Shown: positions 8,742 through 41,803, counted from the first letter of the stretch. The stretch: DNA of 64,000 nucleotides from Candidatus Kaiserbacteria bacterium (GCA_963699165.1 OY969413.1:660562-724561), one strand, 5' to 3'. Numbers and translations: made by a program. The notes: generated from the letters alone by a model not told the origin.

Positions 8742-9347
8742 CTACTCCAAAATCCCGTCGAGATTTACGTCGTAAAGAATGGCTTCGTTAATGAGACGAT
8801 ATTTGACGATTTCCTCAGGAGCAAACCAGTGTTTGATTTCTGCGTCTGACTCGGCTACCGAACCGGATGCGTGAATCAGGTTACGAACAGCCCGCTTGTC
8901 AGTATCGGATATCTGGTACGAATCCAAAACAAAGTCACCTCGAATGGTGCCGACATCAGAACTAAGCGGTTCAGTACCTCCCGTAATCTTGCGAACAATC
9001 TTGACCGCGTGTGCGCCCTCGATGACGAGGAAAATCGCCGGACCGGAAGTCATATATTTTTTCAAACCCTTCAGAATGGCTGCGGTAATTTCGAGCGGAT
9101 CTTCAGACGGCGGCGTAAGTCCTTTTTCTTTATAGGAACGGATAGTCTTCTCGCCCGTGACGCGGCGCCACTCCGGGTCAAGTGTGTAGTGCTGTTCGAT
9201 TTTCTCTTCAGTCGGAATCAACATCTTCATCGCAACGATTTTCAGTCCAACACGCTCGTAGCGCTGGATAATCTCTCCGATGAGCGAGCGCTGAATACCG
9301 TCTGGCTTTACGATGACGAGCGTTTGTTCTGTTTTAGGATGTGCCAT
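8742..9347 (-). CDS. ndk: Nucleoside diphosphate kinase (long form with an internal insertion).
   Basis: TLVIVKPDG, IGEII.RYE, GTIRGDF and FAPEE motifs. Confidence 0.85.
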   Translation of the reverse strand: MAHPKTEQTLVIVKPDGIQRSLIGEIIQRYERVGLKIVAMKMLIPTEEKIEQHYTLDPEWRRVTGEKTIRSYKEKGLTPPSEDPLEITAAILKGLKKYMTSGPAIFLVIEGAHAVKIVRKITGGTEPLSSDVGTIRGDFVLDSYQISDTDKRAVRNLIHASGSVAESDAEIKHWFAPEEIVKYRLINEAILYDVNLDGILE

Positions 9348-9379
9348 GGTTTAAAAATAAAAACGCTTAAAGGGGGCGC

Positions 9380-10144
9380 TTATGCGGTGATAATACGCGC
9401 TCCGTTCTTTTCTATCAAGATGGTGTGTTCGAAGTGTGCGCTTTTCGAGCCGTCCTTTGTGCGATACGTGTAGCCGTCGGGCGCGAGCGTCACGGCGGCT
9501 TTCCCGGCGGTCGCAATCGGTTCGAGCGCGAGCACCATACCCTCCTCAATGAGCGGCCCCTGATTCGGACGGCCGAAATTCGGAATAAACGGTTCCTCGT
9601 GCACAACGTCGCCGACGCCGTGACCGCCGAGTTCTTTCACGACCGAAAATCCAGCGCCTTCGATTTCTATTTGAATCGCATTTGAAACTGCACCCATTCG
9701 ATTGCCAGGTAGTGCTGCAGCAATGCCGGCAGCGAGCGCGACTTCGGTCGCGCGAAGAAGCTTTTTCGTTTGGTCGCTTATCTCGCCGACCGGAACCGTA
9801 ATCGCCGCATCAACGACAATGCCATTGTGAATGAGACCGAGGTCGAGCGAGACGATGTCGCCCGTTTTCAGCTTCTTTGGCGATTCGTTTGGAATGCCGT
9901 GAACAACCTCGTCGTTTATGGAAACGCAGAGCGTCGCGGGATACGCGCGGCGCGCGCCTTCGGGCGTGTAATTAAGAAATGCGGGCTCGTCGCCGCCGTC
10001 GCGGATGACCTGCTCGGCCAAATCATCCAGCTCTTCGGTCGTCACGCCGGGCGCAACTTTTGAGCGCAGCGTTTTCAGGAGCGCGCCGAGACGCTTCCCC
10101 GCTTCGATGAGATTCGCCCGTTCTTCGTCGGTCTTGATAATCAT
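9380..10144 (-). CDS. map: Methionine aminopeptidase type I.
   Basis: Typical MAP-I sequence with metal-ligand residues. Conserved position after adk. Confidence 0.9.
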   Translation of the reverse strand: MIIKTDEERANLIEAGKRLGALLKTLRSKVAPGVTTEELDDLAEQVIRDGGDEPAFLNYTPEGARRAYPATLCVSINDEVVHGIPNESPKKLKTGDIVSLDLGLIHNGIVVDAAITVPVGEISDQTKKLLRATEVALAAGIAAALPGNRMGAVSNAIQIEIEGAGFSVVKELGGHGVGDVVHEEPFIPNFGRPNQGPLIEEGMVLALEPIATAGKAAVTLAPDGYTYRTKDGSKSAHFEHTILIEKNGARIITA

Positions 10145-10731
10145 GCGATATGGAACGCCGCGCGGATGTCGCGAGCGACTTCGTCAGGAGATTGTTCGCC
10201 ATTTATATCGACTACTGCTCCTTTCGTGCGGAAAAAATCGACGGCCTCTTTTGTATGCTTTGCGAACTCATCGAGCCGGATGCGTATTTTTTCTTCCGTG
10301 TCGCTATCCGGCCGGTGCTCTGCGCGCGCGCGGCTAAGCTGCCGGCGCATGACTTCTTCTTCACTGACTTCCAGATTGATGACGCGGTATGGGCGATTAA
10401 GCCATTCCGCCACCTCGTCGAAAAGCTCGGCTTCCTCTTTCCAGCGGCCCGTTCCTTCGAAGATAACGCCCGCGCCATGCGGCAGATGCAGAAGCGCGTC
10501 TTCAAAAAGATACTCGGCAAACCATGTGGGCAAAAGTTTGCCCGTGTCATACACCTGCTTCACGCGCTCGCCGAGCGCATCGCGGTGTTCGCGCAATTCC
10601 CGAAATCGCTCGCCGGTCGAAAATAAATGGTACCCGGTAAGCTCGGCGAGCCGGCGGGCTTGCGTCTCTTTGCCCGAGCCGGGACGGCCGATAAAAAGAA
10701 TCGTGCGAACGTCTGGATTATTCTGCGTCAT
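10141..10731 (-). CDS. adk: Adenylate kinase (short, no zinc lid).
   Basis: P-loop GRPGSGKETQ. Synteny secY-adk-map. Confidence 0.9.
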   Translation of the reverse strand: MTQNNPDVRTILFIGRPGSGKETQARRLAELTGYHLFSTGERFRELREHRDALGERVKQVYDTGKLLPTWFAEYLFEDALLHLPHGAGVIFEGTGRWKEEAELFDEVAEWLNRPYRVINLEVSEEEVMRRQLSRARAEHRPDSDTEEKIRIRLDEFAKHTKEAVDFFRTKGAVVDINGEQSPDEVARDIRAAFHIA

Positions 10732-10736
10732 GCGCT

Positions 10737-11336
10737 CTATGATACTCCCTTCGCCTCGCGAATGACAGAGCCGACGAGCGCGGAAAACTTGTCTTTCGCC
10801 GCATCGAGCTCGCCGTTTCTGTTCGAAATGATGACATCCGCATTATTTTTATATGCCGTCTCGTGTTCGTAGCGCACTTTGCGTTTCTCGAGCTCCGTTT
10901 CGGGAATCGGGGCGCGCGCGAGGATACGCGCGCGCAATTCCTCCCACGAACCGGCATCGACAAAAACGGTCCTTAGAGCTTCTTTTGGCAACAGCTTCTC
11001 AATCGCCTGCACGCCCTGCATTTCGATTTCGTGCAGTACCACGTGACCGCTCGAAAGCGCATCGAGCACTTCCCGTTTCGGCGTGCCGTACAGGTTTCCG
11101 CCATATTCCGCCGACTCGAGAAATTGCCCCGAATCGCGCTCGCGCTCGAATTCTTCGCGCGTTACAAAATGATATTCTTTCCCGTTTGTTTCGCCGGGGC
11201 GCATGGAACGCGTGGTCGACGAAACCGGAAAACGCAGTTCCGGGTACAGGGAAAGCGCGTAGCGCATGAGCTCGCCTTTGCCGCTTCCGCTTGGTCCGAA
11301 CACGAGGATGATTTTTCCTGTGATGTGCGGCTCCAT
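10737..11336 (-). CDS. gmk: Guanylate kinase.
   Basis: GPSGSGK ... TTRSMRPGETNGKEYHFV ... matches Gmk. Confidence 0.85.
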   Translation of the reverse strand: MEPHITGKIILVFGPSGSGKGELMRYALSLYPELRFPVSSTTRSMRPGETNGKEYHFVTREEFERERDSGQFLESAEYGGNLYGTPKREVLDALSSGHVVLHEIEMQGVQAIEKLLPKEALRTVFVDAGSWEELRARILARAPIPETELEKRKVRYEHETAYKNNADVIISNRNGELDAAKDKFSALVGSVIREAKGVS

Positions 11337-11344
11337 GGCGGTTA

Positions 11345-12619
11345 TTAATATTCCCGCAACGAAACTTGAGCGTTTATTTTGTTGGCAAGATCGAGCGTCA
11401 CCTGCACGGCAATGAGAAGAGCGGTGCCGCCAAGAACGATGGTCGTAACGCCGGTAAGCCCCTCGATGATTGACGGCGCGACGGCGATGAGGCCGAGAAA
11501 TACCGCGCCGGGGAACGTGATGCGGTTCACCACCTTGCCGATGTATTCTTCAGTCTCACGACCTGGGCGAACGCCTGGAATGAATGCGCCGGACTTCTGA
11601 AGATTTTCAGCGACGCGGTGCGGTTCAAACGTGACGGCGGTGTAGAAGTACGTAAAGAGAACGACAAGCACGAAATACACCGAGCCGTATTTCCACGGAT
11701 TCGAGAGGAATGCGGAATACCAGAGCGACGCGCCTGCGGCAAACGAGATATGAAGCGAGCTAAGCACCGAAAGAGCCATTTGCGGAAGAAGCAAAAGCGA
11801 AAGCGCGAAGATAATTGGAATCACGCCGGCCTGCAGGAGGCGAATCGGAAGGTATGTCGCTGCGCCTTGCGAAGCCGCGGTGCCCCGCACTGCACGCGCG
11901 TAGGCAATCGGAATCGAACGCTCCGCGTCCGACACGACGACGACCGCGTAAATCATGGCGAGCGCGAGGAACAGAAAGGCAAGATACGACGGAATATTTG
12001 CAGCCGAAGCCGCGAAGATGCTCTGAGAGACGCCCGCCGGAATGCGCGCAAGTATGCCCGCGAGGATGATGAGCGAGACACCGTTGCCGATGCCGAATTC
12101 GGTGACGAGTTCGCCGAGCCACATAAGGAACATCGAGCCGGCCGCGACAAGCAGAATATTTGCGATGAGCCCTATCGGGCTCAAGTGCGCAATGACACCC
12201 TGACTTTGCAACAGAAAAAGAAACGCTACCCCTTGCAAAATCGCAATCGGAATGGTGAGCAGGCGGCTCCATTCGATGAACTTCGCGCGGCCGGCCTCGC
12301 CTTCCTCAAAGTACGCCTGCTTCACTTGCGGGAAAATCATAGTGCCGAGCTGCATGATAATTGACGCCGTGATGTACGGACCGACGCCGAGCATCACCAC
12401 CGAAAGCTGGGCGAGGCCGCCGCCGGAAAAGAGGTTCAGGAGTCCGAAAAATTGATTGTTTGCAAAAAAGGAAGCGAGCGCATTCTTGTCGACGCCCGGA
12501 ATTGGAATAGACGCGAGAAAGCGGAAGAGCACAAGCGCGCCCGCAAGGAAGAAAATACGGAAACGAATTTGAGAATCGCCGAACGCGAGTTTGAGTTTGT
12601 GAATAAAAAAATTAAGCAT
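11345..12619 (-). CDS. secY: Preprotein translocase subunit SecY.
   Basis: Ten-TM SecY pattern. Start taken at MLNFFIHK; overlaps the rplO stop by 8 nt. Confidence 0.9.
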   Translation of the reverse strand: MLNFFIHKLKLAFGDSQIRFRIFFLAGALVLFRFLASIPIPGVDKNALASFFANNQFFGLLNLFSGGGLAQLSVVMLGVGPYITASIIMQLGTMIFPQVKQAYFEEGEAGRAKFIEWSRLLTIPIAILQGVAFLFLLQSQGVIAHLSPIGLIANILLVAAGSMFLMWLGELVTEFGIGNGVSLIILAGILARIPAGVSQSIFAASAANIPSYLAFLFLALAMIYAVVVVSDAERSIPIAYARAVRGTAASQGAATYLPIRLLQAGVIPIIFALSLLLLPQMALSVLSSLHISFAAGASLWYSAFLSNPWKYGSVYFVLVVLFTYFYTAVTFEPHRVAENLQKSGAFIPGVRPGRETEEYIGKVVNRITFPGAVFLGLIAVAPSIIEGLTGVTTIVLGGTALLIAVQVTLDLANKINAQVSLREY

Positions 12620-13064
12620 GGCTTGTGCCGCCGGCGGCGGCAAGCGCGGCACGCGCGCCCTTCGAAATGGCACAGTCCTCGACGATGAGCGCCTTCGTGA
12701 GCGGACCGGCCCCGAGAATCTTCACCGCGGGCGCGCGGCCTTTCGAGCGGCGCACGAGGCCTTTCGCGAGAAGCGTTGCGGGAGAAATCGTCTCGCCCGC
12801 TTTGTAATTGAGCTCGATGTCGGCAAGATTGACGGCTGTTACCGCGATGCGGTTCGTGCGAATTGTGCGTGCACGGTTTTGCCCGTGTCCGCGGAGCTTC
12901 GGAAGTTTTTTGATTAGATCGCGGACTTCCGGACGGATTTTGTGTCCCGCGCGCGCGGTCTGCCCTTTGCCGCCGTGGCCGGACGTCTTGCCGCGCTTGC
13001 CGCCGCGCCCGACGGGCGCGTTCTTTTTGTTTTTTGTGCGGGGTGAAAGCGAGTTGAGTTGCAT
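12612..13064 (-). CDS. rplO: 50S ribosomal protein L15.
   Basis: Only the C-terminal 150 aa of the 334-aa track ORF are L15 (GRGGKRGKTSGHGGKGQ...). Start at ATG 13062-13064. Confidence 0.9.
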   Translation of the reverse strand: MQLNSLSPRTKNKKNAPVGRGGKRGKTSGHGGKGQTARAGHKIRPEVRDLIKKLPKLRGHGQNRARTIRTNRIAVTAVNLADIELNYKAGETISPATLLAKGLVRRSKGRAPAVKILGAGPLTKALIVEDCAISKGARAALAAAGGTSHA

Positions 13065-13074
13065 GGTACGGAAA

Positions 13075-13692
13075 TTATTTTGCGCGGAGCTTTTTGAGAG
13101 CGGCGACCGTTGCGCGAGCGATAGTGAGCTTGTTTTTCGAGCGGGTGTGAATCTTGGTGACGACATCGGTGACGCCGGCAAGTTCAAGCACGGTGCGCAC
13201 TGCCGAACCGGCAACAAGGCCGCGGCCTCTCGAAGGAATGATTTCAACCTCCGAAGACGCATACTTTGTCGAGACCTGATGCGGAATCGAGCCGGACGCT
13301 GTGCGAGGTACCGTGAAAAGATGCTTCTTTGCGTCGCGCGTTGCCTTGTCGATGGCAAGCGCAGTGTCGACGCCTTTACCAAGACCGACGCCGACGCGGC
13401 CCTTGCGGTCGCCGATGACGACAACCAAGCTGAAATTGAAGCGGCGGCCGCCTGCCATGACGCGCGCCACGCGGCGGGCATCAATGGTGACCTGGTCGAA
13501 CTCGCCGCGTTCGCGCGGAGCTCGTGCGCGATTGCCGCCGCGAGGCGCGCGTCCGCGGATTGCGCCGCGGCCCGTGCGCGCCGGTGCTGCGGTTTCGACC
13601 GGAACAGCGGCCGCAAGAACCGCCTCTTCAGCGACCGCTTCCGCTGCGCCTTCAGTTACTGCTACTTTCTCCTGTTCCATGTCAGTTGCCAT
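13075..13692 (-). CDS. rpsE: 30S ribosomal protein S5. No rpmD (L30) gene lies between S5 and L15.
   Basis: S5 core. Start at MATDMEQEK. The 10-nt gap to rplO leaves no room for L30. Confidence 0.9.
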   Translation of the reverse strand: MATDMEQEKVAVTEGAAEAVAEEAVLAAAVPVETAAPARTGRGAIRGRAPRGGNRARAPRERGEFDQVTIDARRVARVMAGGRRFNFSLVVVIGDRKGRVGVGLGKGVDTALAIDKATRDAKKHLFTVPRTASGSIPHQVSTKYASSEVEIIPSRGRGLVAGSAVRTVLELAGVTDVVTKIHTRSKNKLTIARATVAALKKLRAK

Positions 13693-13696
13693 ACTA

Positions 13697-14047
13697 TTAA
13701 AAAGTGAGACCGGCCGCACGTGCAGCATCGGCAAGCGACTTCACCTGTCCGCCATAGCGGTAGCCGCCGCGGTCAAACACGATTGCGGTAACGCCGAGCG
13801 CCTTTGCCTTCTTTGCGATTGCTTCGCCGACGGATGTTGCCTGCACCGACTGCGGTCCTTTGAATTCTCGGCCGTGCGATGCGGCAATCGTCTTCCCTGC
13901 CGCGTCGTCGATAAGCTGCGCCGAAACAAAGCGGTTGCTGCGGTACACCGCAAGGCGCGGGCGTTCGGGAGTGCCTTTTATTTGCGAACGCACGCGCAAG
14001 TGGCGGCGCTTTCGAAGTTCGGAATTGGTTGTTGGTTTTTTGTTCAT
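13697..14047 (-). CDS. rplR: 50S ribosomal protein L18.
   Basis: L18 sequence and synteny. Confidence 0.9.
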   Translation of the reverse strand: MNKKPTTNSELRKRRHLRVRSQIKGTPERPRLAVYRSNRFVSAQLIDDAAGKTIAASHGREFKGPQSVQATSVGEAIAKKAKALGVTAIVFDRGGYRYGGQVKSLADAARAAGLTF

Positions 14048-14053
14048 AAATTT

Positions 14054-14584
14054 CTACACGGACTTCTTGCCCTGCTTGCGGCGAATGACTTCCCCATCAT
14101 AGCGAATGCCCTTGCCGAGATACGGTTCCGGCGGCTTCACGCGGCGAATGTTTGCGGCAAACTGCCCAAGCGACTCTTTATCGATGCTTTCGAGCTTGAT
14201 GACGTTCTTTTCGACGGTCGCCGTGATGCCTTCCGGAATCGCAAGCGGCACCGTGTGCGAGAAGCCGACGGTAAGCACGATGTCCTTCCCCTTCACTTCG
14301 ACCTTAAAGCCAACGCCTTCGAGAATAAGCTTTGTAAGATACGGCGTCTCAACGCCCTGCACCATGTTTTTTACGTGCGAAGCAAACGTGCCGGTAAGCG
14401 CTTTTGCGAGACGTGAATTGTCCTTCGGAGTAACGAGGACGCCGGTCGGCTCGACTGCGATGCCGATTGAAGGATGGACGCGCTTCGTAAGCGTGCCCTT
14501 CGCGCCTTTCACGGTGAGCACACCGCTCGCCACGGAGACGTTCGTCTTTCCTACTGAAATCGGTTTTTTAGCAAGGCGTGACAT
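14054..14584 (-). CDS. rplF: 50S ribosomal protein L6.
   Basis: L6 sequence and synteny. Confidence 0.9.
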   Translation of the reverse strand: MSRLAKKPISVGKTNVSVASGVLTVKGAKGTLTKRVHPSIGIAVEPTGVLVTPKDNSRLAKALTGTFASHVKNMVQGVETPYLTKLILEGVGFKVEVKGKDIVLTVGFSHTVPLAIPEGITATVEKNVIKLESIDKESLGQFAANIRRVKPPEPYLGKGIRYDGEVIRRKQGKKSV

Positions 14585-14729
14585 GGCTAGATTTTATTAT
14601 GAGCGGAGCGAATTAGAAAATCAGCCACCCTGTTAAATACATTTGCTCCGCATGCTCCGCAAATGTCCCGCTTGGCGGGATTTAACAGGGTAAGCAAACT
14701 GTAATTCATTTCATTCATAACAGTATTGC
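14585..14729 (-). promoter_or_regulatory. Highly structured 145-nt spacer between rpsH and rplF: nested inverted repeats CCCTGTTAAAT/ATTTAACAGGG, TCCCGC/GCGGGA, CATTTGC/GCAAATG, and GGTAAGCAA/TTGCTTACC.
   Basis: Inverted repeats read directly. Unusually long for an intra-operon junction where neighbouring genes are 1-10 nt apart. Confidence 0.4.
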
Positions 14730-15134
14730 TTACCAAATCTCGAAGAGGTCTTCTCCGCCGACGCGGTTCTTGCGTGCCTCCGCATCGGAAATGATGCCGA
14801 GCGAAGAAGACATGATGCGCGCTCCCGTGCCGCCCTTCACGCGATGCGCCTCCGTGTGCGGAGCGTAAAGGCGGCGGCCCGGCTTGCTGATGCGCTTCAC
14901 GCCGCGGAGCTTTGCCTGACCGCGCTCGTTATAGGCGAGTGTAACAACAAGATCTTTCTTAATCTCGCTTTCGCCGCGCGCCTTCACATCGACGCTTTCA
15001 ATAAAGCCAAGCTCCTTGAGCTTCTTTGCGATTGCCGAAAGATGCACCGAGTACGGCACCGTCACATCGCGCTTGCCGATGAGTGCGGCATTTTGCAAAC
15101 GAATTATGAAATCTCCAACGCGGTCGCTTACCAT
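14730..15134 (-). CDS. rpsH: 30S ribosomal protein S8.
   Basis: S8 sequence and synteny. Confidence 0.9.
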
Positions 15135-15397
15135 GATGCTTTCTTAACGCCCGGAATCTTTCCCTCGAGCGCGAGCTCGCGGAACTGGATGCGGGACAAC
15201 CCAAAGGTGCGCATATAGCCGCGCGAACGACCGGTAATCGCGCAGCGGTTCTTCAAACGGGACGGAGCGGAGTTTCTCGGGAGCGCCTGCAGGCCTGCAG
15301 AATCACCGGCCAGCTTCAAAGCCGCACGCTTTACCGCGTACTTCTTCACGAGTTTCGCCTTTTTGGCGTATCGCGCGAGCTGGGATTTTTTGGCCAT
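15128..15397 (-). CDS. rpsN: 30S ribosomal protein S14 (long, non-zinc form).
   Basis: ...[42 protein letters not shown]. Confidence 0.85.
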
Positions 15398-15523
15398 AAG
15401 GTTGCTTACTTTCGACGTTCGTTCGGAAAAAGAGAAGCGAACCTTCTCTTTTTACTCACTCACTGGAAAGTAAAAAATAAAGCTCCGAGGAGCGTTCAGG
15501 TACTGTATCAAATAGCGTCTACG

Positions 15524-16616
15524 GCGTCAAACCTGTGTACGCGTCCAGTACTTTTGGCAGTCCCCGACGGTTAATGTACACACAATATACCGCAAGGGGG
15601 ACACCATGCCGAGCGACTGGTGCGGGCGTTTGGTGTTGTACCAAATCAGCCAGTCGACAAGCTTCAGATTGAAGGAATGAATATCGTCCCGCAGCAGGCC
15701 CCGATTCAGCATGATGAAGTCCTCGGAGACGGTGCGATTGAATCGTTCGACGTGGGCATTCATCTTGGGAGTGCGGGGGCGGGTGTGAAAGTGCGTGAGC
15801 CCGAGTTCGGCACAGGCATCCTCGAAGTGTTTGGCGAACTCGCTCCCGTTGTCGGTCTGCAACTCGTCGATATCGAAGGGGCAAACCTCGATGACTCGGC
15901 GAAGGAAGTCGTCCGCGCTTCTCGACGAGTGGTTCGTATACGCGCCCGCAAAGGCGAACTTCCGCTCCACGTCCACTGCCGTGAGGACGTACCGCTTCAC
16001 GCCGTCGATGAAGCGGACGACGGTATCGAGCTCCATGCCGCGCTTGCCGGTGCGGCGAAGCTTGGTACGGCGTTTCTGCGGTGTTTCCGTGTGATTGCCC
16101 GTACGTGCGTGGAACGAGAGCCGGCTCTGCTGCGGGAGCAGACCGCGGTTCTTCAAATCCAGAATGACCCGCCCAACGTATGACTCCGACACGGAGTACC
16201 CTTCTTCGCGCAGGAGAACGGCAAGCTTTGCTTTCCCAAGCCGGGGATGCGCCTGTCGTTCGCGGATGATGAAATCCTCGACCTCGGGCAGAACAGTCCT
16301 CCTTCGACGCGCCTTCGGCGCAGTGCTCTTCGGGTCAAGTGCATCAATGCGGCCCTCGTGGGCTTTGAGTTCCTCCTTCCAGCGATACAAGGTGCGCTCC
16401 GAGGTGCCAAAGGCGTCGTATGCGGCCTCCGTCCCGTGCATGTCCCAGAATCCCAATATCTTCACCCGTCTGTCGACTTCCTTTGGTTTCCGCATATGCC
16501 GCAATCGTATCGTCCTTTCCCACATGCTCAACCAGCCCTTCGTACCCCTGAAATTGCTTCTGATGTGCATATATCCTCGGTTATGAGGACTGCCAAATGT
16601 ATCTGAACTTATGCAA
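15524..16616 (-). mobile_element. IS481-family insertion sequence, copy A (~1.09 kb), inserted between rplE and rpsN. Imperfect ~30-bp terminal IRs TGTACGCGTCCAGTACTTTTGGCAGTCC / TGCATAAGTTCAGATACATTTGGCAGTCC.
   Basis: Near-identical direct copy of 21898..22989. IRs read directly. The left boundary is ambiguous by ~10 bp because both copies share CGTCAAA, then 4 mismatches, then TGTAC. Confidence 0.75.
15527..16570 (-). CDS. IS481-family DDE transposase (rve integrase core; 347 aa).
   Basis: N-terminal HTH region, then D...D...E core with LQTDNGSEF and ERFNRT...[11 protein letters not shown]. Confidence 0.8.
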   Translation of the reverse strand: MHIRSNFRGTKGWLSMWERTIRLRHMRKPKEVDRRVKILGFWDMHGTEAAYDAFGTSERTLYRWKEELKAHEGRIDALDPKSTAPKARRRRTVLPEVEDFIIRERQAHPRLGKAKLAVLLREEGYSVSESYVGRVILDLKNRGLLPQQSRLSFHARTGNHTETPQKRRTKLRRTGKRGMELDTVVRFIDGVKRYVLTAVDVERKFAFAGAYTNHSSRSADDFLRRVIEVCPFDIDELQTDNGSEFAKHFEDACAELGLTHFHTRPRTPKMNAHVERFNRTVSEDFIMLNRGLLRDDIHSFNLKLVDWLIWYNTKRPHQSLGMVSPLRYIVCTLTVGDCQKYWTRTQV

Positions 16617-16661
16617 CCTGATGGTGAGCAGGAATCGTGCTACCCGATAGAGGCAAAATGC

Positions 16662-17195: not shown

Positions 17196-17215
17196 ATTTA
17201 GGCCTTAGACCAGCG

Positions 17216-18678: not shown

Positions 18679-18680
18679 AT

Positions 18681-18899: not shown

Positions 18900-18909
18900 A
18901 CAAAAGAAA

Positions 18910-19287: not shown

Positions 19288-19288
19288 A

Positions 19289-19624: not shown

Positions 19625-19628
19625 AAAA

Positions 19629-31392: not shown

Positions 31393-31419
31393 ATGAGTAG
31401 TGATTCGGTTGCTACTGGC

Positions 31420-32619
<1,200 letters not shown>

Positions 32620-32951
32620 AATCGGATAATTTAGTTAGTAATTCACGAAATAAATCCGACGTGAGTCGGAACAAACTCCAAACCCTTCACACTAAGATGG
32701 CGTTGTCCTGCGACAAAACTCTCGATTTTGAGAAATATGTTAGCGCCTACACTTTACGCCAGCTTGAAAGGTGGCGCACTGCAGGACGCTAAGTCGCGAC
32801 GCCATCTTGTGTGCGGGGCAAAGAGCGACGCCAAGATGCGTTATAGGCACTATACGAGAAGCTGTGAGGAAATGCAAGAACAGGAATCTGAATTTACCGA
32901 TACAAGGCCTAAAACAAAAATGCGGGATTGCTCGTGTGCTTTTGGACAAGC

Positions 32952-33581: not shown

Positions 33582-33710
33582 GAATTTAACTAGAAACTGG
33601 GCAGCACTTTCATGCTGCCCAGAGTAACACGGACTAAATCCTCTTGTCGCATTGTGAATTTGGCAATTTAGTAAAAGGGCGGTGCCTGTTTTTTTAAAAC
33701 TCTCGTTGCA

Positions 33711-34379: not shown

Positions 34380-34390
34380 AAAGTTGTTTC

Positions 34391-34852
34391 CTATTTTGTC
34401 GGGGCAGTGATAACGTCCTGCGGGTTTGGGCGAACAATAAAATGCACTATGTAATCAGGCATATCTTTTATTGCACTTTTTACCGTCAAATCCACTTCTC
34501 CGTTACCGTCAAATTCATTATAGTAAGACCAACATGCCGGAGTTGCTTCAGAAGCAAATCCCGGAAGTCCGCCATTGGAAATATATCCTGCGGTTGCGTT
34601 ACCGCTCACTGTTTTGAATTGCAGATTATGATCTTTATCGGGATACACGTCTTTGGGCAGATTGATGAATAATCTCGTCGTATCAATTACATTCTGCGTT
34701 GACCCGTTCGGGATGCCGCCGCACAGAAGCACTTTCGCATCGTCGGATGGGATAGAAGTGGGAGTATGCAATTTCAATATTGCAAAAATACAAGCCAGCA
34801 CGGCGAGCACAACGACGGCGACGAGTATTATCTTTGTATTAGTGACTTTCAT
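34391..34852 (-). CDS. N-terminally anchored small secreted protein (154 aa).
   Basis: TM anchor MKVTNTKIILVAVVVLAVLACIFAIL. Confidence 0.45.
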   Translation of the reverse strand: MKVTNTKIILVAVVVLAVLACIFAILKLHTPTSIPSDDAKVLLCGGIPNGSTQNVIDTTRLFINLPKDVYPDKDHNLQFKTVSGNATAGYISNGGLPGFASEATPACWSYYNEFDGNGEVDLTVKSAIKDMPDYIVHFIVRPNPQDVITAPTK

Positions 34853-34856
34853 ATCT

Positions 34857-36122
34857 TTACTGGAACGAAAGCGTCTTTTGCCCAACCTTTGCATACATAT
34901 TGCCTCCGTCCGGATTAGGTACCAACGTGCTTGAGTCATAGGTAACTATGGTAATGCTGCTGTTCGTATGTGTCTCCCGCAGCGTGATTGGGCCCATGCC
35001 ATCGAGTACGCCAAGGTACGTTTCATTTCCCGAAAGCTGCGAACCTGCAACAAGGGTGGTTGTTGATTGATCGAGTGAGTAGGTATACAGAGCCTGGGTC
35101 GTGACATACAGCGCAATGTTTCTCTTGGGTGCGAGATACAAAGCGATGTTGCCCGGTATCGGTGTAATTTCTCCGTTTTGAGAATCGAGAATTGCGTCAC
35201 TCGATTTGTCTGCGCCCGATTGGGTGAAAAGAATGTACCGCTTACCGATAGCATCGAGCCATATGTCGAATTGGAGCATCTTCTCCGGACTAAGAGGAGG
35301 ATTGTTCGGAAACGCCGCAGAATATTGGGAGCTCATCACTATGGCGACATCCGTAGCTATTTTTTTCTCTTCGGCAGTCAAATTCTGCTCCTGCTGCCAC
35401 GTTGGGACAATGAAATGAGGTGTGACGGGGAGCAAATCCGTCCGCAATTGAGAAAGCGCAACATCATCGGGTGAAGGTTCCGTGGAAGTGCTGAACGCAA
35501 ACGTGCCAATCATTTCTTCGGCACTTTTGTCATAGAGAGGATACCGGATGAGAAGTTTAGTGCCATCGTTATTTTCGACGGTTATAAGATTTTGCGTAAC
35601 GCCGTCCGGAATGATACTGCCATTCCCTTCGGCAGTGTTCGTAAATCCTTTGGTGAGCGAAAAGGAATACGCTCGGTGTCCCGCAAAAGTTATCGGTACG
35701 AGAGCGCCTATCTGCCGGTCTTTTAGGTTCGGGTTCGAATCGTCAACTTGATACTGCCGAAGCGTCGAAGCGAACTGCTGAAGCGGTTCTGCTAGTAGGT
35801 CATCGTATTCTTTACCGGAATGCAGTCCCGTCGCGAATGCTTGTATGTCGATTTCGGTCGTGGTTCCCGGCAAGTAAATCATTGCGTAAGAGGTTTTGTT
35901 TTGAGATTCGTTCTCTTCTTCTATAAAACGATCGACTAGAGAACCTGGCGCATATTTTATCGAATATTTATAGGCGGTGTTGCTGTATATCGACCACGAA
36001 GCAGTATCGACGGTTGCCGTGACTGCGTGAAATTCCCACACCGCAATACACACAAGACCCGCGATAATCGCGAGCGATGCAATTAGAATGATGGGTTTTT
36101 TGTTTTTTGTGGAAAGGGCCAT
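34857..36122 (-). CDS. N-terminally anchored secreted protein, family B (421 aa).
   Basis: TM anchor. C-terminal paralogy with 33711..34379 (GKRYI.F, LSGNETY, TLSF). Confidence 0.55.
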   Translation of the reverse strand: MALSTKNKKPIILIASLAIIAGLVCIAVWEFHAVTATVDTASWSIYSNTAYKYSIKYAPGSLVDRFIEEENESQNKTSYAMIYLPGTTTEIDIQAFATGLHSGKEYDDLLAEPLQQFASTLRQYQVDDSNPNLKDRQIGALVPITFAGHRAYSFSLTKGFTNTAEGNGSIIPDGVTQNLITVENNDGTKLLIRYPLYDKSAEEMIGTFAFSTSTEPSPDDVALSQLRTDLLPVTPHFIVPTWQQEQNLTAEEKKIATDVAIVMSSQYSAAFPNNPPLSPEKMLQFDIWLDAIGKRYILFTQSGADKSSDAILDSQNGEITPIPGNIALYLAPKRNIALYVTTQALYTYSLDQSTTTLVAGSQLSGNETYLGVLDGMGPITLRETHTNSSITIVTYDSSTLVPNPDGGNMYAKVGQKTLSFQ

Positions 36123-36201
36123 ATATTGAAGCCGAGAGGTATGAGATAAGTATACAGAATAGGGAGGTCTCCGATGATAGGAATGTCAAAAAATCCGGCA
36201 C

Positions 36202-36879
36202 CTATTCTCTGTTGAGAAAAGCTATACTCTTTACCATGCGCTGTGTATCGGCTTGAGAAAAACCGCCGATACTCATGAACACCTCTTTATTCTTATGCAT
36301 ATAAATTAAGTTCGTTTCCGGAGGTTGGTCCCATTTATCCGTTTTCGTGATGTAATCGTCCGGCGCAAGAGAACTAAAAATTAATACCCTGACGCCATTC
36401 ATCGTTTCAAACCTAAGGTTCGGAAACTCATCGCTAAGGAGCAGTCCGCGCTTGAGAATTTGGGCCTGCTGTTCAGCAAGCCAGTTATCAATCGTCCCTA
36501 ACCCATCCGTCGATGTTGCAGAAATTTCAATTTCTTTAAAATCTGTTCCCGGTGAAGCGGAATTTACAAAATTGTCCATTTGCATAAAACTCGCATTAAA
36601 GTCGGCGGGATTACTCCCCCAATTCTGACGAATTTCATCTGACGGATACTCGAACGACATGTCCAACGCCGTATTTGTATATCGCGACCATCCTCCGCCC
36701 AAGTCCTGCAAGCTTCCAAATGTCTTCAGGTCTTGCACCGGCGTCGGAATTTTTTGCGCATCCAAAGTATTCAAAGCATTTTGCCGGTACAAAAGAGCGG
36801 CCTCGGTGCCAAGAAGCAATACAAGGAACATCAGCACATAGAAAATATTGCTTCCCACTGGTTTATTAAAAAATCGCAT
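36202..36879 (-). CDS. N-terminally anchored secreted protein, family A (GGGWSRYTNTALDMSFEYPSDEI ... SIAFLN).
   Basis: Paralog of 32952..33581. Confidence 0.55.
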   Translation of the reverse strand: MRFFNKPVGSNIFYVLMFLVLLLGTEAALLYRQNALNTLDAQKIPTPVQDLKTFGSLQDLGGGWSRYTNTALDMSFEYPSDEIRQNWGSNPADFNASFMQMDNFVNSASPGTDFKEIEISATSTDGLGTIDNWLAEQQAQILKRGLLLSDEFPNLRFETMNGVRVLIFSSLAPDDYITKTDKWDQPPETNLIYMHKNKEVFMSIGGFSQADTQRMVKSIAFLNRE

Positions 36880-36967
36880 GACGACATGCTAGCACGATAG
36901 ACGAATCATAAGCGCCGAAAAATTTCTATGCTTATATCCAAGCTTGACCCTCGTAAAGTACCTTAAC

Positions 36968-37210
36968 TTATTTTGGCCAAGCAAGATAAATTTGAACTCC
37001 AGAAGCAGTAATTGATAAAATTATCGCGATGATTGCAATTGTCAGTGAGTAGACCGCGAATCTTTTTGATGACCTTGAATCTTCTAACGAAATCCTCCTC
37101 AGGAGTTCGTATGACGCTAGAACGCCGTGCGAAGGATCGCTTATGTTGATGTACTCCAGCAATTCCGTTTCTGTAAGATTTTGAATTGGTTTGCCAAAAT
37201 TGTTTATCAT
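36968..37210 (-). CDS. Small protein with a C-terminal TM helix (80 aa).
   Basis: ORF track. Hydrophobic C-terminus. Confidence 0.3.
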   Translation of the reverse strand: MINNFGKPIQNLTETELLEYINISDPSHGVLASYELLRRISLEDSRSSKRFAVYSLTIAIIAIILSITASGVQIYLAWPK

Positions 37211-37404
37211 TTTAATTCTTCGTGGTCAGTATTATAATCCAAATACAAGAGAATAGGGGTTTGGGGAGCTTTATTGTTTAACCATTTCCAGAGGTTTCAA
37301 TGCGGACAAAGCCGCGGTAAAATTGTATATATGAAAATCGTAAAAATTGTGGTCGGGAAAGATGATGATATTTTCGGGCTTGGCGACGATAATCTCATGT
37401 ACAT

Positions 37405-37653
37405 TTGGAATCAGTATTCAGCGTCTTGGGATTTGATCTCAGTCAAAAAGCCATGAAAGGAGTAGGCGGGGCAATCCTTTTTGGATTTGGGCTACTTGGG
37501 CTAATCGGAACTCAACAGAAAGAATTGGGGCTGTTGTGGCTCTGTATATTCATGGCCATTTTTGCAGTTGGACTTTATTTTTGGGTGGACGATATGTTAG
37601 ACACGAAATTAGAAAAATTAAAGAAAGAGATTCTCTCGGAAATCGGACATTAA
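37405..37653 (+). CDS. Small two-TM membrane protein (82 aa).
   Basis: ORF track. Two hydrophobic helices. Confidence 0.3.
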   Translation: MESVFSVLGFDLSQKAMKGVGGAILFGFGLLGLIGTQQKELGLLWLCIFMAIFAVGLYFWVDDMLDTKLEKLKKEILSEIGH

Positions 37654-37844
37654 GGTATCATTTGTATTTTCCCCGTTAAGAAGTAATTTCAGCACGCAAT
37701 GACCCCTTTACCACAACACCGCCGGATTACCGGCGGTGTTGTGATGCGCGGCAGGTGTCCGCCGCGTTGGTTTACTTTCTGGACGCGATTTTTTGATTAC
37801 GAGGCTCGACCTCATAAAAAACGGAGTGCCACGCGGACTTATCT

Positions 37845-38201
37845 CTAATTTTTTATCTCGGGAATCGGATGTTCTTCGAGGTACTTCGCGAGCGGCGCTT
37901 CAGTCTCGTGCAATTTTGAAATGACGTCATTCCACACGAGCGACAGCAAAATTTCATAATATTCATGTACGACAACATCCCGAAAGCCGGCGATTTTCTT
38001 CCACGGCAAATCTATTTCGGCTCTTGCTTCTTCGGAAACGCGTTTCGCCGTCTCGCCTATCTGTTGCAATTGCATCAAAACGGCATCTTGGGTTTTGCTG
38101 TCCTCGAGAAACTCTTCGTACCTTTGCGTGCCAACATACTGTCGTATGTGCGATATGCATTCGAGCATTTGAGCAATGTACGGACTATCACTCTTTTTCA
38201 T
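37845..38201 (-). CDS. hepT: HepT-like HEPN toxin (DUF86) of a HepT/MntA type VII toxin-antitoxin pair.
   Basis: Rx4HxY motif FRDVVVHEY. Overlaps the end of the upstream MNT gene by 14 nt. Confidence 0.75.
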   Translation of the reverse strand: MKKSDSPYIAQMLECISHIRQYVGTQRYEEFLEDSKTQDAVLMQLQQIGETAKRVSEEARAEIDLPWKKIAGFRDVVVHEYYEILLSLVWNDVISKLHETEAPLAKYLEEHPIPEIKN

Positions 38202-38484
38202 ACAGCATTTTGAGTTCCGGAACGATGTAGGGACGCATAAATTTATTGATAGTTCCTTCGGCCACAACATCGACTTCCCGCTCGAGATTTTGCTCAAGCT
38301 GTTCTTTCAAGTCCATATATGAATACAATCCCATCTGCGGGTCGATTTTAACGAGAATGTCGACATCGCTTTTCGGAGTCGCTTCACCACGCGCAAAAGA
38401 ACCGAATATTTGCGCACGCGTTACGCCGTACTTCTCAAATACGGGGCGTGCCTTTTCTGCGATTTCATCCACTGTCGGTTGCAT
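38188..38484 (-). CDS. mntA: MntA-like minimal nucleotidyltransferase antitoxin (Pol-beta superfamily).
   Basis: GSFARGEATPKSDVDILV nucleotidyltransferase motif. Confidence 0.8.
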   Translation of the reverse strand: MQPTVDEIAEKARPVFEKYGVTRAQIFGSFARGEATPKSDVDILVKIDPQMGLYSYMDLKEQLEQNLEREVDVVAEGTINKFMRPYIVPELKMLYEKE

Positions 38485-38500: not shown

Positions 38501-38543
38501 AAAACACATGCGTGACCGGCGAAGCCGGTCACGCATGTGTTTT
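38501..38543. terminator. Perfect 20-bp hairpin AAAACACATGCGTGACCGGC gaa GCCGGTCACGCATGTGTTTT between fusA and mntA.
   Basis: Read directly. T-runs on both sides. Confidence 0.6.
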
Positions 38544-38562
38544 CTATTTTGTTTGCGATGGT

Positions 38563-40710
38563 TTACTTTCTGGACGCGATAATGTCCGCAGCGACGTTGT
38601 TTGGCACGGTGTCGTAGTGGTCGAATTCCATCGTCATTGAGCCGCGGCCTTCGGTCATGGAGCGAAGAGTGGTCGTGTAGCCGAACATTTCGGAAAGTGG
38701 CACTTTTGCGCGGATGGTTTTGTTCATGCCGCGGTCTTCCATGCCTTCGATTTGTCCGCGCTTGCCCGAAAGCGAGCCCGTGATGTCGCCCATGAATTGC
38801 TCCGGCACGATGACTTCGACGCGCATAATCGGTTCAAGAATTACCGCCTTCGCGCGGCCTGCCGCTTCCTGAAACGCCATCGATGCGGCGATTTTGAATG
38901 CGATTTCCGAAGAGTCGACATCGTGGTAGGAGCCGTCGTAGAGGTCGACGGAAATGTCCACCATCGGGAAGCCCGCGAGGAAGCCGCGCGCCATCGCTTC
39001 GCGAACACCCTTCTCCACTGCGGGAATGTATTCCTGCGGAACCACACCGCCTTTGATGTTGTTGATGAATTCAAAGTGGTCTTCGCGTGTGATGTTTTTT
39101 GCAATCTTCGCGCCTTCCACAAGCGGCTCCATTTTCTTCATCTTGATTTTCACGTGACCGTACTGGCCGCGGCCGCCGGTCTGCTTGATGTACTTCCCTT
39201 CTGCATCGGCAGAACCAAGAATCGTTTCGCGGTACGCCACCTGCGGTTTGCCCACATCGGCAACGACATTGAATTCGCGCTTCATGCGGTCAACGAGAAT
39301 TTCAAGATGCAACTCGCCCATGCCCGAGATAATCGTCTCGTTGGTTTCCTCATCGGTCTTGATGCGGAAAGTCGGGTCTTCGTCGGAGAGTTTGCGAAGC
39401 GCAATACCCATTTTCTCTTGGTCGGCCTTTGTCTTCGGCTCGATGCGAAGCGACACCACCGACTCCGGAAACTTAATCTCTTCAAGCACAATCGGACTCG
39501 CCTCATCGCAGAGCGTGTGCGACGTCTTTGTGTCTTTGAGACCAACGGCTGCAGCTATTTCTCCTGTGAAAACCTTTTCAACTTCTTCGCGCTTGTCTGC
39601 TTGAAGGCGGACGATACGGCCGACGCGCTCTTTCGAGCCGGTCGTCGAGTTGTATACATACGAACCGGCCGTGAGCGTACCGGAGTACACGCGGAAGAAG
39701 GTGAGTGCGCCGACAAACGGGTCGGTTTGAAGTTTGAATGCAAGCGCGCAGAACGGTTCGTCGTCGGATGCATGGCGTTCAATCGGCTCATCTGTCTTCG
39801 GGTCTTTACCGGTCGTAGGCGGAAGGTCGAGTGGCGAAGGAAGATAGTCCACAACAGCATCAAGCACGAGCTGTACGCCCTTGTTTTTGAGCGCACTGCC
39901 GCAGTACACCGGAAATACTTCATTGTGAATAACCGCCTTGCGAAGAAGCGCCTTGAGTTCATCAATGCTCGGCTCCTTGCCTTCGAGATAGGCATTCATC
40001 GCCGTGTCGTCCTGCTCGACGATGCGCTCGATGAGTTCGCCGCGGAATTTCTTCGCGTCGTCCAAAAGATTTGCCGGAACTTCGCCTTCGACAACGTCTT
40101 CGCCCATGTTGCCCGTAAAGGTGTACGACTTCATCGAAAGAAGATCGACGACGCCTTCATGCGCGGACTCTTCGCCTATCGGAATCTGCATGCGAATCGC
40201 TTTCGGCGATAGGCGGTCAAGAATGCTTGCGTACGAGCGCTCAAACGATGCGCCCGTGCGGTCGAGCTTGTTGATGAAACAAACGCGCGGCACTTTTGCC
40301 TCATCGGCGTAGCGCCAGTTGGTTTCGGACTGCGGTTCGACGCCGGCAACGCCGTCAAAGACGACGACTGCGCCGTCGAGAACGCGCATGGAGCGCTTCA
40401 CTTCGGCAGTGAAGTCGATGTGTCCCGGCGTGTCGATAACATTGAAACGGAATTTCTTCGCTTTATCTTTTTTGTCCTTCTCGCTCGTGCGCGTCCAGAA
40501 ACAGGTAATGGCGGCGGCCGTGATGGTGATGCCGCGCTCGCGCTCCTGCTCCATCCAGTCGGTGGTCGTCTCGCCTTCGTGCACTTCGCCGATTTTGTGC
40601 TGCGAACCGGTATAGAAAAGCACGCGCTCGCTGGTCGTCGTTTTACCGGCGTCGATGTGGGCGATGATTCCGAAATTACGAACTTTCTCGAGTGGATAGT
40701 CGCGGTTCAT
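38563..40710 (-). CDS. fusA: Elongation factor G.
   Basis: AHIDAGKTT GTPase motifs; 715 aa; after rpsG. Confidence 0.95.
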
Positions 40711-40791
40711 ATAATGGTTACAAAAATAAAATGCGCGGAGCGCAGGTTGATAGTATCACGCACCGAACTGCTCTGCGAGTGAACGCAGAAA

Positions 40792-41256
40792 TCACCACGC
40801 AAAGTGAGCAAATGCCTTGTTGGCGTCTGCCATGCGGTGCATCTCGTCCTTCTTCTTGATTGCATCGCCTTCGTTCTTTGCGGCAAGCAGGAGTTCGGCG
40901 GCGAGTTTCTCGGCCATCGGCTTCCCTTTCTTTGCGCGGGCGGCATTGATAATCCAGCGGAACGAGAGTGCGAGGCGGCGCGTCTGCGGAACTTCGCGCG
41001 GCACTTGGTAGTTGGCGCCTCCGACGCGGCGGGAGCGGACTTCCATCAAAGGAGACACGTTGCGAAGCGCGGACTCAAACGTCTCAAGTGGATTCTCTCC
41101 GCCCTTCTCGATGACGGCGAGCGCATCGTATACGACTGCACGGGCAGTGTCTTTCTTTCCGTCCCACATGACGGCATTGATAAAGCGGGAGAGGGTCTCT
41201 GAACCGTATTTGAGGTCAGGACGCCACGTTCGTTTCTTTTTAAGAGGTCGGCGCAT
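40792..41256 (-). CDS. rpsG: 30S ribosomal protein S7.
   Basis: S7 sequence. Start taken at MRRPLKKKR. Confidence 0.9.
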   Translation of the reverse strand: MRRPLKKKRTWRPDLKYGSETLSRFINAVMWDGKKDTARAVVYDALAVIEKGGENPLETFESALRNVSPLMEVRSRRVGGANYQVPREVPQTRRLALSFRWIINAARAKKGKPMAEKLAAELLLAAKNEGDAIKKKDEMHRMADANKAFAHFAW

Positions 41257-41386
41257 ATCAGTTTTTGAAAGCACCAATTCCCAAATTCGAAATATCAAAC
41301 AAGTCGGAAACGCCGTTCGAATTTGCTGTCTTGTATTTTGAGAATTGAGATTTCATATTTATTTGGAATTTGTTGCTTCGAATTTT

Positions 41387-41803
41387 TTATTTTGCTTTAC
41401 TGGGGCGCTTCGCACCGTAGCGAGAGCGGCCGCGGCGGCGCTTCTCAATGCCGCTCGTGTCGAGCTTCCCGCGAACGATGGTGTACTGCACGCCGATGTC
41501 TTTCACGCGGCCGCCGCGAAGCAAGACCACGGAGTGTTCCTGCAGGTTGTGGCCTTCGCCCGGAATGTAGGCCGTGACTTCCATGCCGTTTGTGAGGCGG
41601 ACGCGGGCGATTTTACGAATAGCGGAGTTCGGTTTTCTCGGGGTCTTGGTGGTCACTTTCGTGCACACGCCGCGCTTAAACGGCGAGGAGTAGAAGGTAG
41701 GACGGTTCTTAAGTGCGTTAAAACCGCGGGCCAATGCAGGCACGGTCGTCTTGCGCGACTTGTTCTTGCGTCCTTTCTTTGAGAGTTGGTTAATTGTAGA
41801 CAT
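41387..41803 (-). CDS. rpsL: 30S ribosomal protein S12.
   Basis: S12 sequence (PKKPNSA.RK ... GGRVKDLPGVRY-like). Confidence 0.9.

Follow-up and report, generated by a model that had tools for sequence, protein, structure and literature searches.

Layout of the ribosomal protein cluster

The 64,000 nt stretch of DNA analysed here, hereafter the window, comes from Candidatus Kaiserbacteria bacterium (Paceibacterota; GCA_963699165.1 OY969413.1:660562-724561) and carries at positions 8,742-41,803 a ribosomal protein (r-protein) cluster of the str-S10-spc kind. Gene identities checked with NCBIfam and Pfam give the minus-strand order rpsL-rpsG-fusA-tuf-rpsJ-rplC...secY-gmk-adk-map-ndk, and all r-protein genes of the cluster are co-directional on this strand. 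Every cluster gene has an NCBIfam equivalog match, and the order from rpsL to secY-adk-map is canonical, except that gmk is added and the uL30 gene is missing:

41387-41803 (-): rpsL
40792-41256 (-): rpsG
38563-40710 (-): fusA
31420-32619 (-): tuf
31003-31392 (-): rpsJ
25818-26432 (-): rplC, followed by rplD and rplW
23853-24704 (-): rplB
21494-21838 (-): rpsS, followed by rplV, rpsC, rplP, rpmC, rpsQ, rplN and rplX
18130-18678 (-): rplE
15128-15397 (-): rpsN, followed by rpsH, rplF, rplR, rpsE and rplO
11345-12619 (-): secY, followed by gmk and adk
9380-10144 (-): map
8742-9347 (-): ndk

Extra DNA is present at four junctions, amounting to 5943 bp at fusA/tuf, 4570 bp at rpsJ/rplC, 2014 bp at rplB/rpsS and 2732 bp at rplE/rpsN. 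An earlier sequence-only reading of the locus had described an intact gene order from rpsL to map with extra DNA at these four junctions, and the family matches and measured gaps bear this out. It had also extended the name of the cluster to the alpha operon. That part does not stand: no alpha-operon gene (rpsM, rpsK, rpsD, rpoA, rplQ) was found in the span or among 24 further open reading frames (ORFs), mostly the larger ones, about 15 smaller ORFs (70-375 aa) outside the cluster being left unscanned. Nor was a uL30 gene found between rpsE and rplO (12612-13692), an absence that is a known trait of bacteria in the CPR (candidate phyla radiation; PMC9297842).

Comparison with related loci

A uL3 scan of species-representative genomes yielded 80 loci (those cited individually below carry L-numbers), all from Candidatus Kaiserbacteria, Paceibacterota or Parcubacteria metagenome-assembled genomes (MAGs), with 72-87% identity. 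We located 25 cluster genes in these loci by tblastn and measured every intergenic distance, calling a junction open where the gap exceeds 300 bp; denominators are the relatives with data for that junction:

rpsG/fusA: open in 26 of 47 relatives
fusA/tuf: open in 42 of 54 relatives
rpsJ/rplC: open in 49 of 68 relatives
rplB/rpsS: open in 44 of 63 relatives
rplE/rpsN: open in 16 of 50 relatives

Gaps above 300 bp occur at these five junctions only, all 19 other junctions with data, up to secY, being tight in every relative. The fusA/tuf and rplE/rpsN gaps of the window are larger than those of any relative (maxima 3276 and 1734 bp, respectively). Judged by these distances, the window is an extreme case of a family-wide layout and not an exception to it, and the earlier view that so much disruption of an r-protein operon is unusual finds no support in the counts for its four junctions.

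What the gaps contain is hypervariable across the family, with a DUF3298 gene at rplB/rpsS as the exception. Among the relatives, 56 ORFs of at least 100 aa at fusA/tuf fall into 51 families, and 72 such ORFs at rpsJ/rplC into 56 families; these ORFs were called mechanically and some may be spurious. A protein family of about 197 aa with a PaaX_M/Cas2-like domain (L015, L021, L022, L043, L044, L056, L073, L077), sometimes with two copies per genome, occupies three different junctions across relatives: rpsG/fusA, rpsJ/rplC and rplE/rpsN. In L078 a distant IS1595-family transposase (25% identity; ~5555-6370) lies in rpsJ/rplC, representing an independent insertion of an insertion sequence (IS) at the same junction as in the window.

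Contents of the gaps in the window

The genes and terminators found in the gaps of the window, its IS copies aside, are as follows; those at fusA/tuf were assigned with Pfam and NCBIfam and together make up island 1 (32952-38484, -):

38188-38484 (-): island 1, MNT
37845-38201 (-): island 1, HepT
36968-37210 (-): island 1, 80-aa ORF
36202-36879 (-): island 1, gene with N-terminal membrane anchor
34857-36122 (-): island 1, gene with N-terminal membrane anchor
34391-34852 (-): island 1, gene with N-terminal membrane anchor
33711-34379 (-): island 1, gene with N-terminal membrane anchor
32952-33581 (-): island 1, gene with N-terminal membrane anchor
28017-30695 (-): island 2 part a (rpsJ/rplC), comprising a predicted terminator (30663-30695), a 60-aa ORF (30436-30618), a DUF2339 gene (28102-30366) and a second predicted terminator (28017-28049)
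26662-27999 (+): antisense 161-aa ORF cut by an IS1595 copy into 26662-27048 and 27901-27999, as read from the rebuilt pre-insertion sequence
23033-23812 (+): antisense DUF3298 gene (Pfam), convergent with rplB, in rplB/rpsS
16662-18076 (-): island 4 cargo (rplE/rpsN), a 286-aa and a 177-aa ORF of low GC

MNT and HepT are adjacent genes for a nucleotidyltransferase antitoxin and a HEPN RNase toxin, overlapping by 14 nt. Pfam assigns them to Polbeta/NTP_transf_2 and HepT-like; MntA and HepT are their best NCBIfam matches, yet under the cut-offs. The two have the gene arrangement of a type VII MntA-HepT toxin-antitoxin pair and may be regarded as a putative one. An MNT-HepT pair of about 60% identity sits at fusA/tuf in two relatives as well (L026, L039), these being the only homologues of island 1 genes found in the 80 related loci. 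The five anchored genes include two paralogous pairs, of 222/421 aa and 209/225 aa (E = 8e-20 and 1e-13).

GC content at third codon positions (GC3) is 0.38-0.53 in the fusA/tuf array and the rplE/rpsN cassette (0.40-0.42 for the two ORFs of the latter) versus 0.61-0.77 in core genes. Both sets are thus compositionally foreign, and this low-GC cargo was probably acquired. PADLOC and PHROGs gave no match for the low-GC cargo or the five anchored genes, only MNT matching candidate defence models, and Pfam likewise had none for the two ORFs of island 4. An integron-like or integrase-driven origin of the islands was considered and rejected, there being no integrase and no repeats at the junctions; a XerC/D-like gene lies far away, at 62.1-63.0 kb.

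The DUF2339 membrane protein (Pfam E = 1.5e-66) has a near-native composition (GC3 0.60), and its gene was not found in the 80 related loci. The DUF3298 gene (GC3 0.63) shares a strong predicted bidirectional terminator with rplB. In 31 of 63 relatives a homologue (47-66% identity) occupies the rplB/rpsS junction, antisense in every case; because place and orientation are the same in so many, the gene is old in the lineage and not an acquisition of the window genome. In many relatives (e.g. L002, L003, L009, L013), though not in the window, the stretch from the DUF3298 start to the rpsS promoter includes a conserved ~50-nt element (TTGTCAAGGTTCTGGAAnnGnnTAGGATTTATGAGGGTGTTT), perhaps the divergent DUF3298 control region.

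The sequence-only reading had listed these contents largely as we find them: a toxin-antitoxin pair and five-gene array, DUF2339 with IS1595, and an IS481-like element accompanied by antisense DUF3298 with its terminator at one junction and by an AT-rich cassette at another. Three of its descriptions need amending. The array does consist of five genes, and these encode proteins with N-terminal membrane anchors, two paralogous pairs among them, where secreted proteins had been proposed. The supposed sigma-like fragment is indeed a disrupted ORF, but it is the 161-aa plus-strand ORF split by IS1595, which has no Pfam match. Finally, segments described as foreign at all four junctions include recent IS copies and the low-GC cargo at fusA/tuf and rplE/rpsN, but also DUF3298, which half the relatives share.

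Insertion sequences and the joins across them

Two types of IS are present, one of them with a further copy outside the cluster:

27049-27892 (+): IS1595-family element, 844 bp, with 8-bp target duplication ACCAATCG at 27041-27048 and 27893-27900 (copy A)
2534-3377: second IS1595 copy, inverted, 100% identical, with its own perfect 8-bp duplication (ACAATTGA)
15536-16615 (-): IS481-like copy A, in rplE/rpsN, with 5-bp duplication ACCTG (plus strand) at 15531-15535 and 16616-16620
21910-22989 (-): IS481-like copy B, 1080 bp, in rplB/rpsS, its transposase-distal tip 5 bp upstream of the predicted rpsS -35 box

The IS1595 copies have the tips GGGTATT…AATACCC, and thus show terminal inverted repeats as well as the 8-bp duplication; their transposase matches Pfam PF12762 and PF12760 (N-terminal zinc ribbon) and NCBIfam NF033547 (83.8 bits, cut-off 75). 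The IS481-like element encodes its transposase in a single ORF with Pfam rve, rve_3 and HTH_32 domains. IS481 is the best NCBIfam model at 182.9 bits, below the cut-off of 224, and IS3 the second at 93.7 bits. Its tips, TGCATAAG… and …GCGTACA with a shared TTTGGCAGTCC core, are of the TGT…ACA type, with inverted repeats and a short duplication. The element thus resembles the IS481 family in its single ORF with helix-turn-helix and rve DDE core, its best NCBIfam match, its ACA-type tips, its imperfect inverted repeats and its short duplication, but differs in scoring below the curated cut-off and in making a 5-bp duplication, most family members making one of 6 bp (PMC10045372). Copies A and B are 99.6% identical, differing at 4 positions, and the three IS insertions in the cluster (IS1595 once, IS481-like twice) are recent.

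Contigs of a short-read MAG (GCA_049279115.1) are 100% identical to the window and end inside each IS copy, as does a Logan contig of run ERR10755936. Contigs of the same population thus leave the joins unconfirmed, and the contig could have been misjoined at repeated IS copies, in which case the interruption of the cluster would be unreal. We give this explanation very little credence. IS1595 copy A stands between perfect 8-bp duplications and IS481-like copy A between 5-bp ones, while exchanging the two IS481-like joins makes the duplication matches worse. The flanks of every IS are those predicted by synteny with the 80 relatives, no r-protein gene is missing or duplicated, the four differences between the IS481-like copies mean that these were resolved separately, and the cargo other than IS lies within single short-read contigs. 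The concern over assembly error raised in the sequence-only reading is therefore apt in that short-read contigs break at every IS, but target duplications and synteny favour the joins.

Predicted promoters, leaders and terminators

Aligning the upstream regions of the relatives gave conserved motifs in front of six genes. The motifs had to be gene-specific, since the -35 boxes of rpsL, tuf and rplC are of a TTGCAT type that escaped a strict generic promoter score:

rpsL: TTGCAT-N-TATATT, hairpin GACCC…GGGTC, U-tract; 40 of 42 relatives, upstream of no other gene
fusA: -10, hairpin CGCC…GGCG, U-tract; 25 of 49 relatives
tuf: TTGCAT-N-(C)GTATAGT, then a leader of ~100 nt; 54 of 61 relatives, upstream of tuf only
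rplC: TTGCATC-N-TGTAGAGT, then a leader of ~80-135 nt; 66 of 74 relatives
rpsS: TTGAC(G/T)-17-TGTATCTT, hairpin CCCGC…GCGGG, CTTTTCATT, ATG; 51-58 of 63 relatives
rpsN: TTGAC-17-TGATAnnCT, hairpin GCTCYTCGGAGC, TTTATTTTTT, ATG; 46-47 of 50 relatives

There are essentially no matches to these motifs upstream of internal genes. All six are intact in the window, between inserted DNA and start codon (the fusA element was positioned there by hand from the sequence), and delimit the following modules, in which promoters and terminators are predictions from conservation, consensus and folding:

40792-41865 (-): module 1, promoter 41837-41865, leader hairpin and U-tract 41807-41830, rpsL, rpsG
38501-40758 (-): module 2, extended -10 40750-40758, leader hairpin and U-tract 40722-40744, fusA, terminator hairpin 38501-38543
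30942-32877 (-): module 3, tuf promoter 32849-32877, long leader, tuf, rpsJ, terminator 30942-30973
23811-26568 (-): module 4, promoter 26540-26568, structured leader with attenuator-like hairpin 26442-26481, rplC-rplD-rplW-rplB, bidirectional terminator 23811-23847
18130-21904 (-): module 5, rpsS promoter TTGACG-17-TACATT 21876-21904, leader hairpin and U-tract 21846-21867, rpsS to rplE
8742-15530 (-): module 6, rpsN promoter TTGACG-17-TACAGT 15502-15530, hairpin and U-tract 15472-15493, palindromic element 15408-15471, rpsN to ndk

Relatives in which the rplB/rpsS or rplE/rpsN junction is tight keep the promoter motif, that of rpsN inside the 3' end of rplE and that of rpsS right after the rplB stop. 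Folding places strong terminator hairpins after fusA (-38.8 kcal/mol), rpsJ, DUF2339 and rplB, and none between rplE and the low-GC cassette of island 4. Since conserved motifs precede fusA, tuf, rplC, rpsS and rpsN and terminators are predicted after fusA, rpsJ and rplB, the cluster does not appear to consist of three long operons (str, S10, spc), each with one upstream promoter.

These observations bear directly on the interpretation offered in the sequence-only reading, namely that a continuous supra-operon was recently broken at four places, leaving blocks that have lost their promoters and must be transcribed by read-through or from new ones. The IS copies are indeed recent, two cargo sets are foreign in composition, the fusA/tuf and rplE/rpsN gaps of the window exceed those of all the relatives (at least 50), and the lack of a terminator between rplE and the low-GC cassette makes some read-through plausible there. 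Yet the same junctions are open in most relatives, DUF3298 is common to 31 of 63 of them, strong terminators are predicted after fusA, rpsJ and rplB, and tuf, rplC, rpsS and rpsN each retain, directly upstream of the start codon and downstream of the insert, the promoter and leader motifs conserved in the family. We regard recent break-up with promoter loss as quite improbable: the recent IS and probably acquired cargo are real, while the loss of promoter context is not supported.

Two of the leaders are long. The rplC leader (26433-26539 in the window; L002-L081) has a hairpin of variable length followed by a terminator-like stem (GCAAATCGCGC…GCGCGATTTGC and U-tract), with compensatory changes in 6 of 8 pairs of the stem and a loop that repeats the 3' arm and could allow alternative pairing. 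RNAalifold on the rplC leaders recovered the terminator-like stem only, the variable upstream hairpin being lost to alignment gaps. Possibly the leader acts as attenuator of the uL4-encoding block, and it invites comparison with the S10 leader of E. coli, where L4 mediates attenuation. Both are conserved leaders before the uL4-encoding block and have a terminator-like hairpin, with covarying pairs in the window's family; unlike the E. coli leader, that of the window is upstream of rplC, not rpsJ, and has no Rfam match. The tuf leader (AACGCATCTTGGCGTCGCTCTTTGGCTTGTCTGC…GGAGTTTGTTCCGACTCACGTCGGATT; 32620-32848 in the window) has about 100 nt that are highly conserved in 54 of 61 relatives, to which the window adds an insert of about 100 nt, and is also without an Rfam match. 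In the window as a whole, leaders included, Rfam gave no match at gathering thresholds, and at permissive E-values only Thr/Leu leader models, driven by terminator hairpins, at 23.8 and 30.7 kb.

The remaining four leaders (41807-41830, 40722-40744, 21846-21867, 15472-15493) resemble each other, with a short GC hairpin just past the predicted transcription start, a U-rich tract and the start codon, and no Shine-Dalgarno sequence before the latter. Their hairpins may be used twice, as terminator of the preceding block and as 5' stabiliser of the next transcript. A palindromic element of ~50-65 nt (CAAGCGAGTGAGTGAAAAAGA…TCTTTTTCCGAACGAGCG), found at 15408-15471 in the rpsN leader of the window, recurs in L003, L016, L022, L026, L046, L050, L053 and L081, where it stands in the 5' untranslated regions of differing blocks (fusA, tuf, rpsL or rpsN). 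This gives it the look of a small leader module that is mobile or recurrent.

An IS481-like element adjoining promoter motifs

Both IS481-like transposases are co-directional with the cluster, and in both copies, beyond the transposase-distal tip (…GGACGCGTACA), come 5 nt and then TTGACG, which is the -35 box of the predicted rpsN promoter (copy A) or rpsS promoter (copy B). These boxes are native, since relatives without the IS carry them. Searching metagenome contigs for an exact 28-nt match to the IS tip gave no hit, whereas a scan with the transposase protein retrieved 26 loci (L085-L110; 53-76% identity), of which 23 have enough flank to evaluate. Together with the two copies in the window, this makes 25 independent insertion sites.

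Positions +6 to +10 after the tip are T (25/25), T (25/25), G (24/25), A (23/25) and C (22/25), and at positions +29, +30 and +34 T, A and T occur in 19, 21 and 20 of 23 sites, which amounts to a -10 signal TA…T, spaced by 17 nt, at about 20 of the 23. What follows the tip thus reads as a complete promoter of the sigma-70 type (17-nt spacing) whose distance from the tip is fixed, the 5-bp offset and the single orientation being identical at all 25 sites. On the opposite flank there is no motif, and in several long flanks a gene starts 41-79 nt beyond the tip. The target duplication accounts for the 5 variable nt after the tip, which in copy A, L089, L090, L097 and L100 equal those of the other flank; the hexamer therefore lies beyond the end of the element. 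No stop codon belongs to the transposase frame itself, which, because the offset is fixed, runs through the tip into TTGA. Of the 25 sites, 22 have an in-frame TGA inside TTGA(C), though in L085 the frame ends earlier, at an in-frame TAA. We also considered TTGAC-N17-TAnnnT as an outward promoter borne by the IS. This was rejected in view of the 5-bp duplications between tip and hexamer and of the rpsS and rpsN promoters carried by IS-free relatives.

This geometry suggests promoter-targeted integration. Another account would be that insertion is random or weakly biased and that promoter adjacency reflects the survival of harmless insertions in a gene-dense genome. CPR genomes are poor in non-coding DNA, so that surviving insertions must fall between transcription units, and two promoters take up nearly all of the DUF3298-rpsS spacer, which measures only about 114 bp. 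Selection alone, however, leaves the identical offset and orientation at 25 of 25 sites without explanation; the copy-A site offers about 50 bp of apparently free spacer, yet has the same offset; and promoter-targeted DDE transposition has precedent in TnGBS, ISLre2 and ISKra4 (PMC3942029). Survival of harmless insertions as the sole cause is, in our judgement, unlikely.

The precedents are Mutator-like DDE elements that insert in one orientation 15-17 bp upstream of the -35 box of sigma-A promoters, which the authors of that study describe as an unusual property for a prokaryotic transposable element (Guerillot et al. 2014, PMC3942029). As in these elements, one given end of the IS481-like element always abuts the promoter, and the core promoter is left intact. 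In contrast to them, its transposase is of the rve type, closest to IS481/IS3 and not Mutator-like (p-MULT), its offset is 5 bp (equal to the target duplication) and not 15-17 bp, and its transposase frame passes the IS tip, usually stopping at the TGA in TTGAC. The element thus works like TnGBS, ISLre2 and ISKra4 but is not a member of that group. On balance we lean towards the view that this IS481-like lineage, common in groundwater-type metagenomes, recognises sigma-70-type promoters, integrates 5 bp upstream of the -35 box in one orientation and takes its stop from the TGA in TTGAC; it would then be a second, unrelated class of promoter-targeting transposase after the Mutator-like TnGBS/ISLre2 group, with the strong block promoters of a natively modular cluster as its landing sites. 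Active recognition of promoters by the IS is what we infer from the fixed geometry. A literature search found no report of promoter-adjacent targeting by IS481-type elements, which is weak evidence given its incomplete coverage.

A putatively modular cluster

The reading that we consider well favoured is that the cluster is, family-wide, a series of six self-promoted blocks, with inserts upstream of block promoters and with the IS481-like copies brought to block boundaries by promoter-targeted integration. The blocks would be rpsL-rpsG; fusA; tuf-rpsJ; rplC-rplD-rplW-rplB; rpsS…rplE; and rpsN…secY-gmk-adk-map(-ndk), each with its own conserved promoter and 5' leader and most ending at an intrinsic terminator. 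The gaps between blocks would be the only places that tolerate added DNA without breaking an essential transcription unit, so the family would keep and swap accessory genes there. In the window genome they would hold an old antisense DUF3298 gene, low-GC cargo that was probably acquired, the DUF2339 gene and three recent IS. With the block promoters downstream of all inserted DNA, each block should still use its native promoter. The IS481-like copies would sit at block boundaries because their lineage integrates 5 bp upstream of a sigma-70-type -35 box in one orientation, the rpsS and rpsN promoters (TTGACG) being its targets.

Several points weigh against this reading. Conservation and consensus are the only grounds on which the block promoters, terminators and leaders are inferred; no more than about half of the relatives show the fusA motif; and a plain sigma-70 consensus scan of the window is not enriched relative to shuffles (11 sites versus 8.3 expected, and 19 versus 13.9), nor is a plain terminator scan, so that cross-genome conservation was relied on instead. 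The window's own assembly is the sole one to show the joins across IS copies. Copy B is without a clean target duplication, its flanking 5-mers ACTGC/ACTAT matching at 3 of 5 positions. Many short metagenome IS contigs lack matching duplications, which may reflect chimeric assembly of repeats across copies, and part of the promoter association could come from selection against harmful insertions. Comparison with relatives, which the sequence-only reading had proposed as a means of dating the insertions, was run on the 80 loci, but the nearest has only 87% uL3 identity and thus no insertion is datable; exact-protein look-ups with tuf, uS19 and uS14 brought up nothing but contigs 100% identical to the window, without any IS-free allele.

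The reference layout for such clusters is the str-S10-spc arrangement of E. coli and B. subtilis. The window shares with it the order from rpsL to secY-adk-map and the common direction of the genes. It differs in that predicted boundaries lie inside str (rpsG/fusA, fusA/tuf), S10 (rpsJ/rplC, rplB/rpsS) and spc (rplE/rpsN), in having no boundary at rpsQ/rplN and no uL30, in that no alpha-operon genes were found in the window, and in that the gaps are hypervariable within one family while one gap has a conserved antisense gene. In Gammaproteobacteria and Bacilli, insertions of a few genes between transcription units are a tolerated first step of cluster break-up (Brandis 2021, PMC8046335). The present case differs from such known insertions between r-protein operons in the positions of the boundaries, the family-wide variability, the conserved antisense gene and the apparently promoter-targeting IS.

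If the modular reading is correct, this family places r-protein operon boundaries inside the canonical str, S10 and spc operons, unlike model bacteria, with the gaps as family-wide slots for variable genes and with block leaders that are absent from Rfam. Such a layout bears on the coordination of r-protein synthesis in ultra-small bacteria and matters where binning and phylogenomics treat the cluster as a contiguous marker. The IS481-like element, for its part, offers a testable case of promoter-targeted integration by a transposase of the retroviral-integrase type. Targeted integration avoids gene disruption by Ty3 and Tf1 in yeasts and by TnGBS in streptococci; promoter targeting would do the same in compact genomes, and the fixed 5-bp geometry could help to study how a transposase reads promoters.

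Other features of the window

Downstream of map lie ndk, a PG_binding/beta-helix protein gene and a gene for a beta-CASP/metallo-beta-lactamase RNase (4172-5764). The last is near the second IS1595 copy, and its best NCBIfam match, type VII CRISPR Cas14, is far under the cut-off. ARAGORN found no tRNA or tmRNA genes. The guanylate kinase gene gmk, between secY and adk, spans 10737-11336. Several r-proteins (uS10, uL4, uL23, uS5, uS17) have N-terminal extensions. Finally, a 38-nt palindrome of 17 base pairs (ATACGCAAATACTACCATATATGGTAGTATTTGCGTAT) at 41917-41954 lies between rpsL and a divergent YerC/TrpR-like gene (41947-42375), and is likely to be an operator or a bidirectional terminator.

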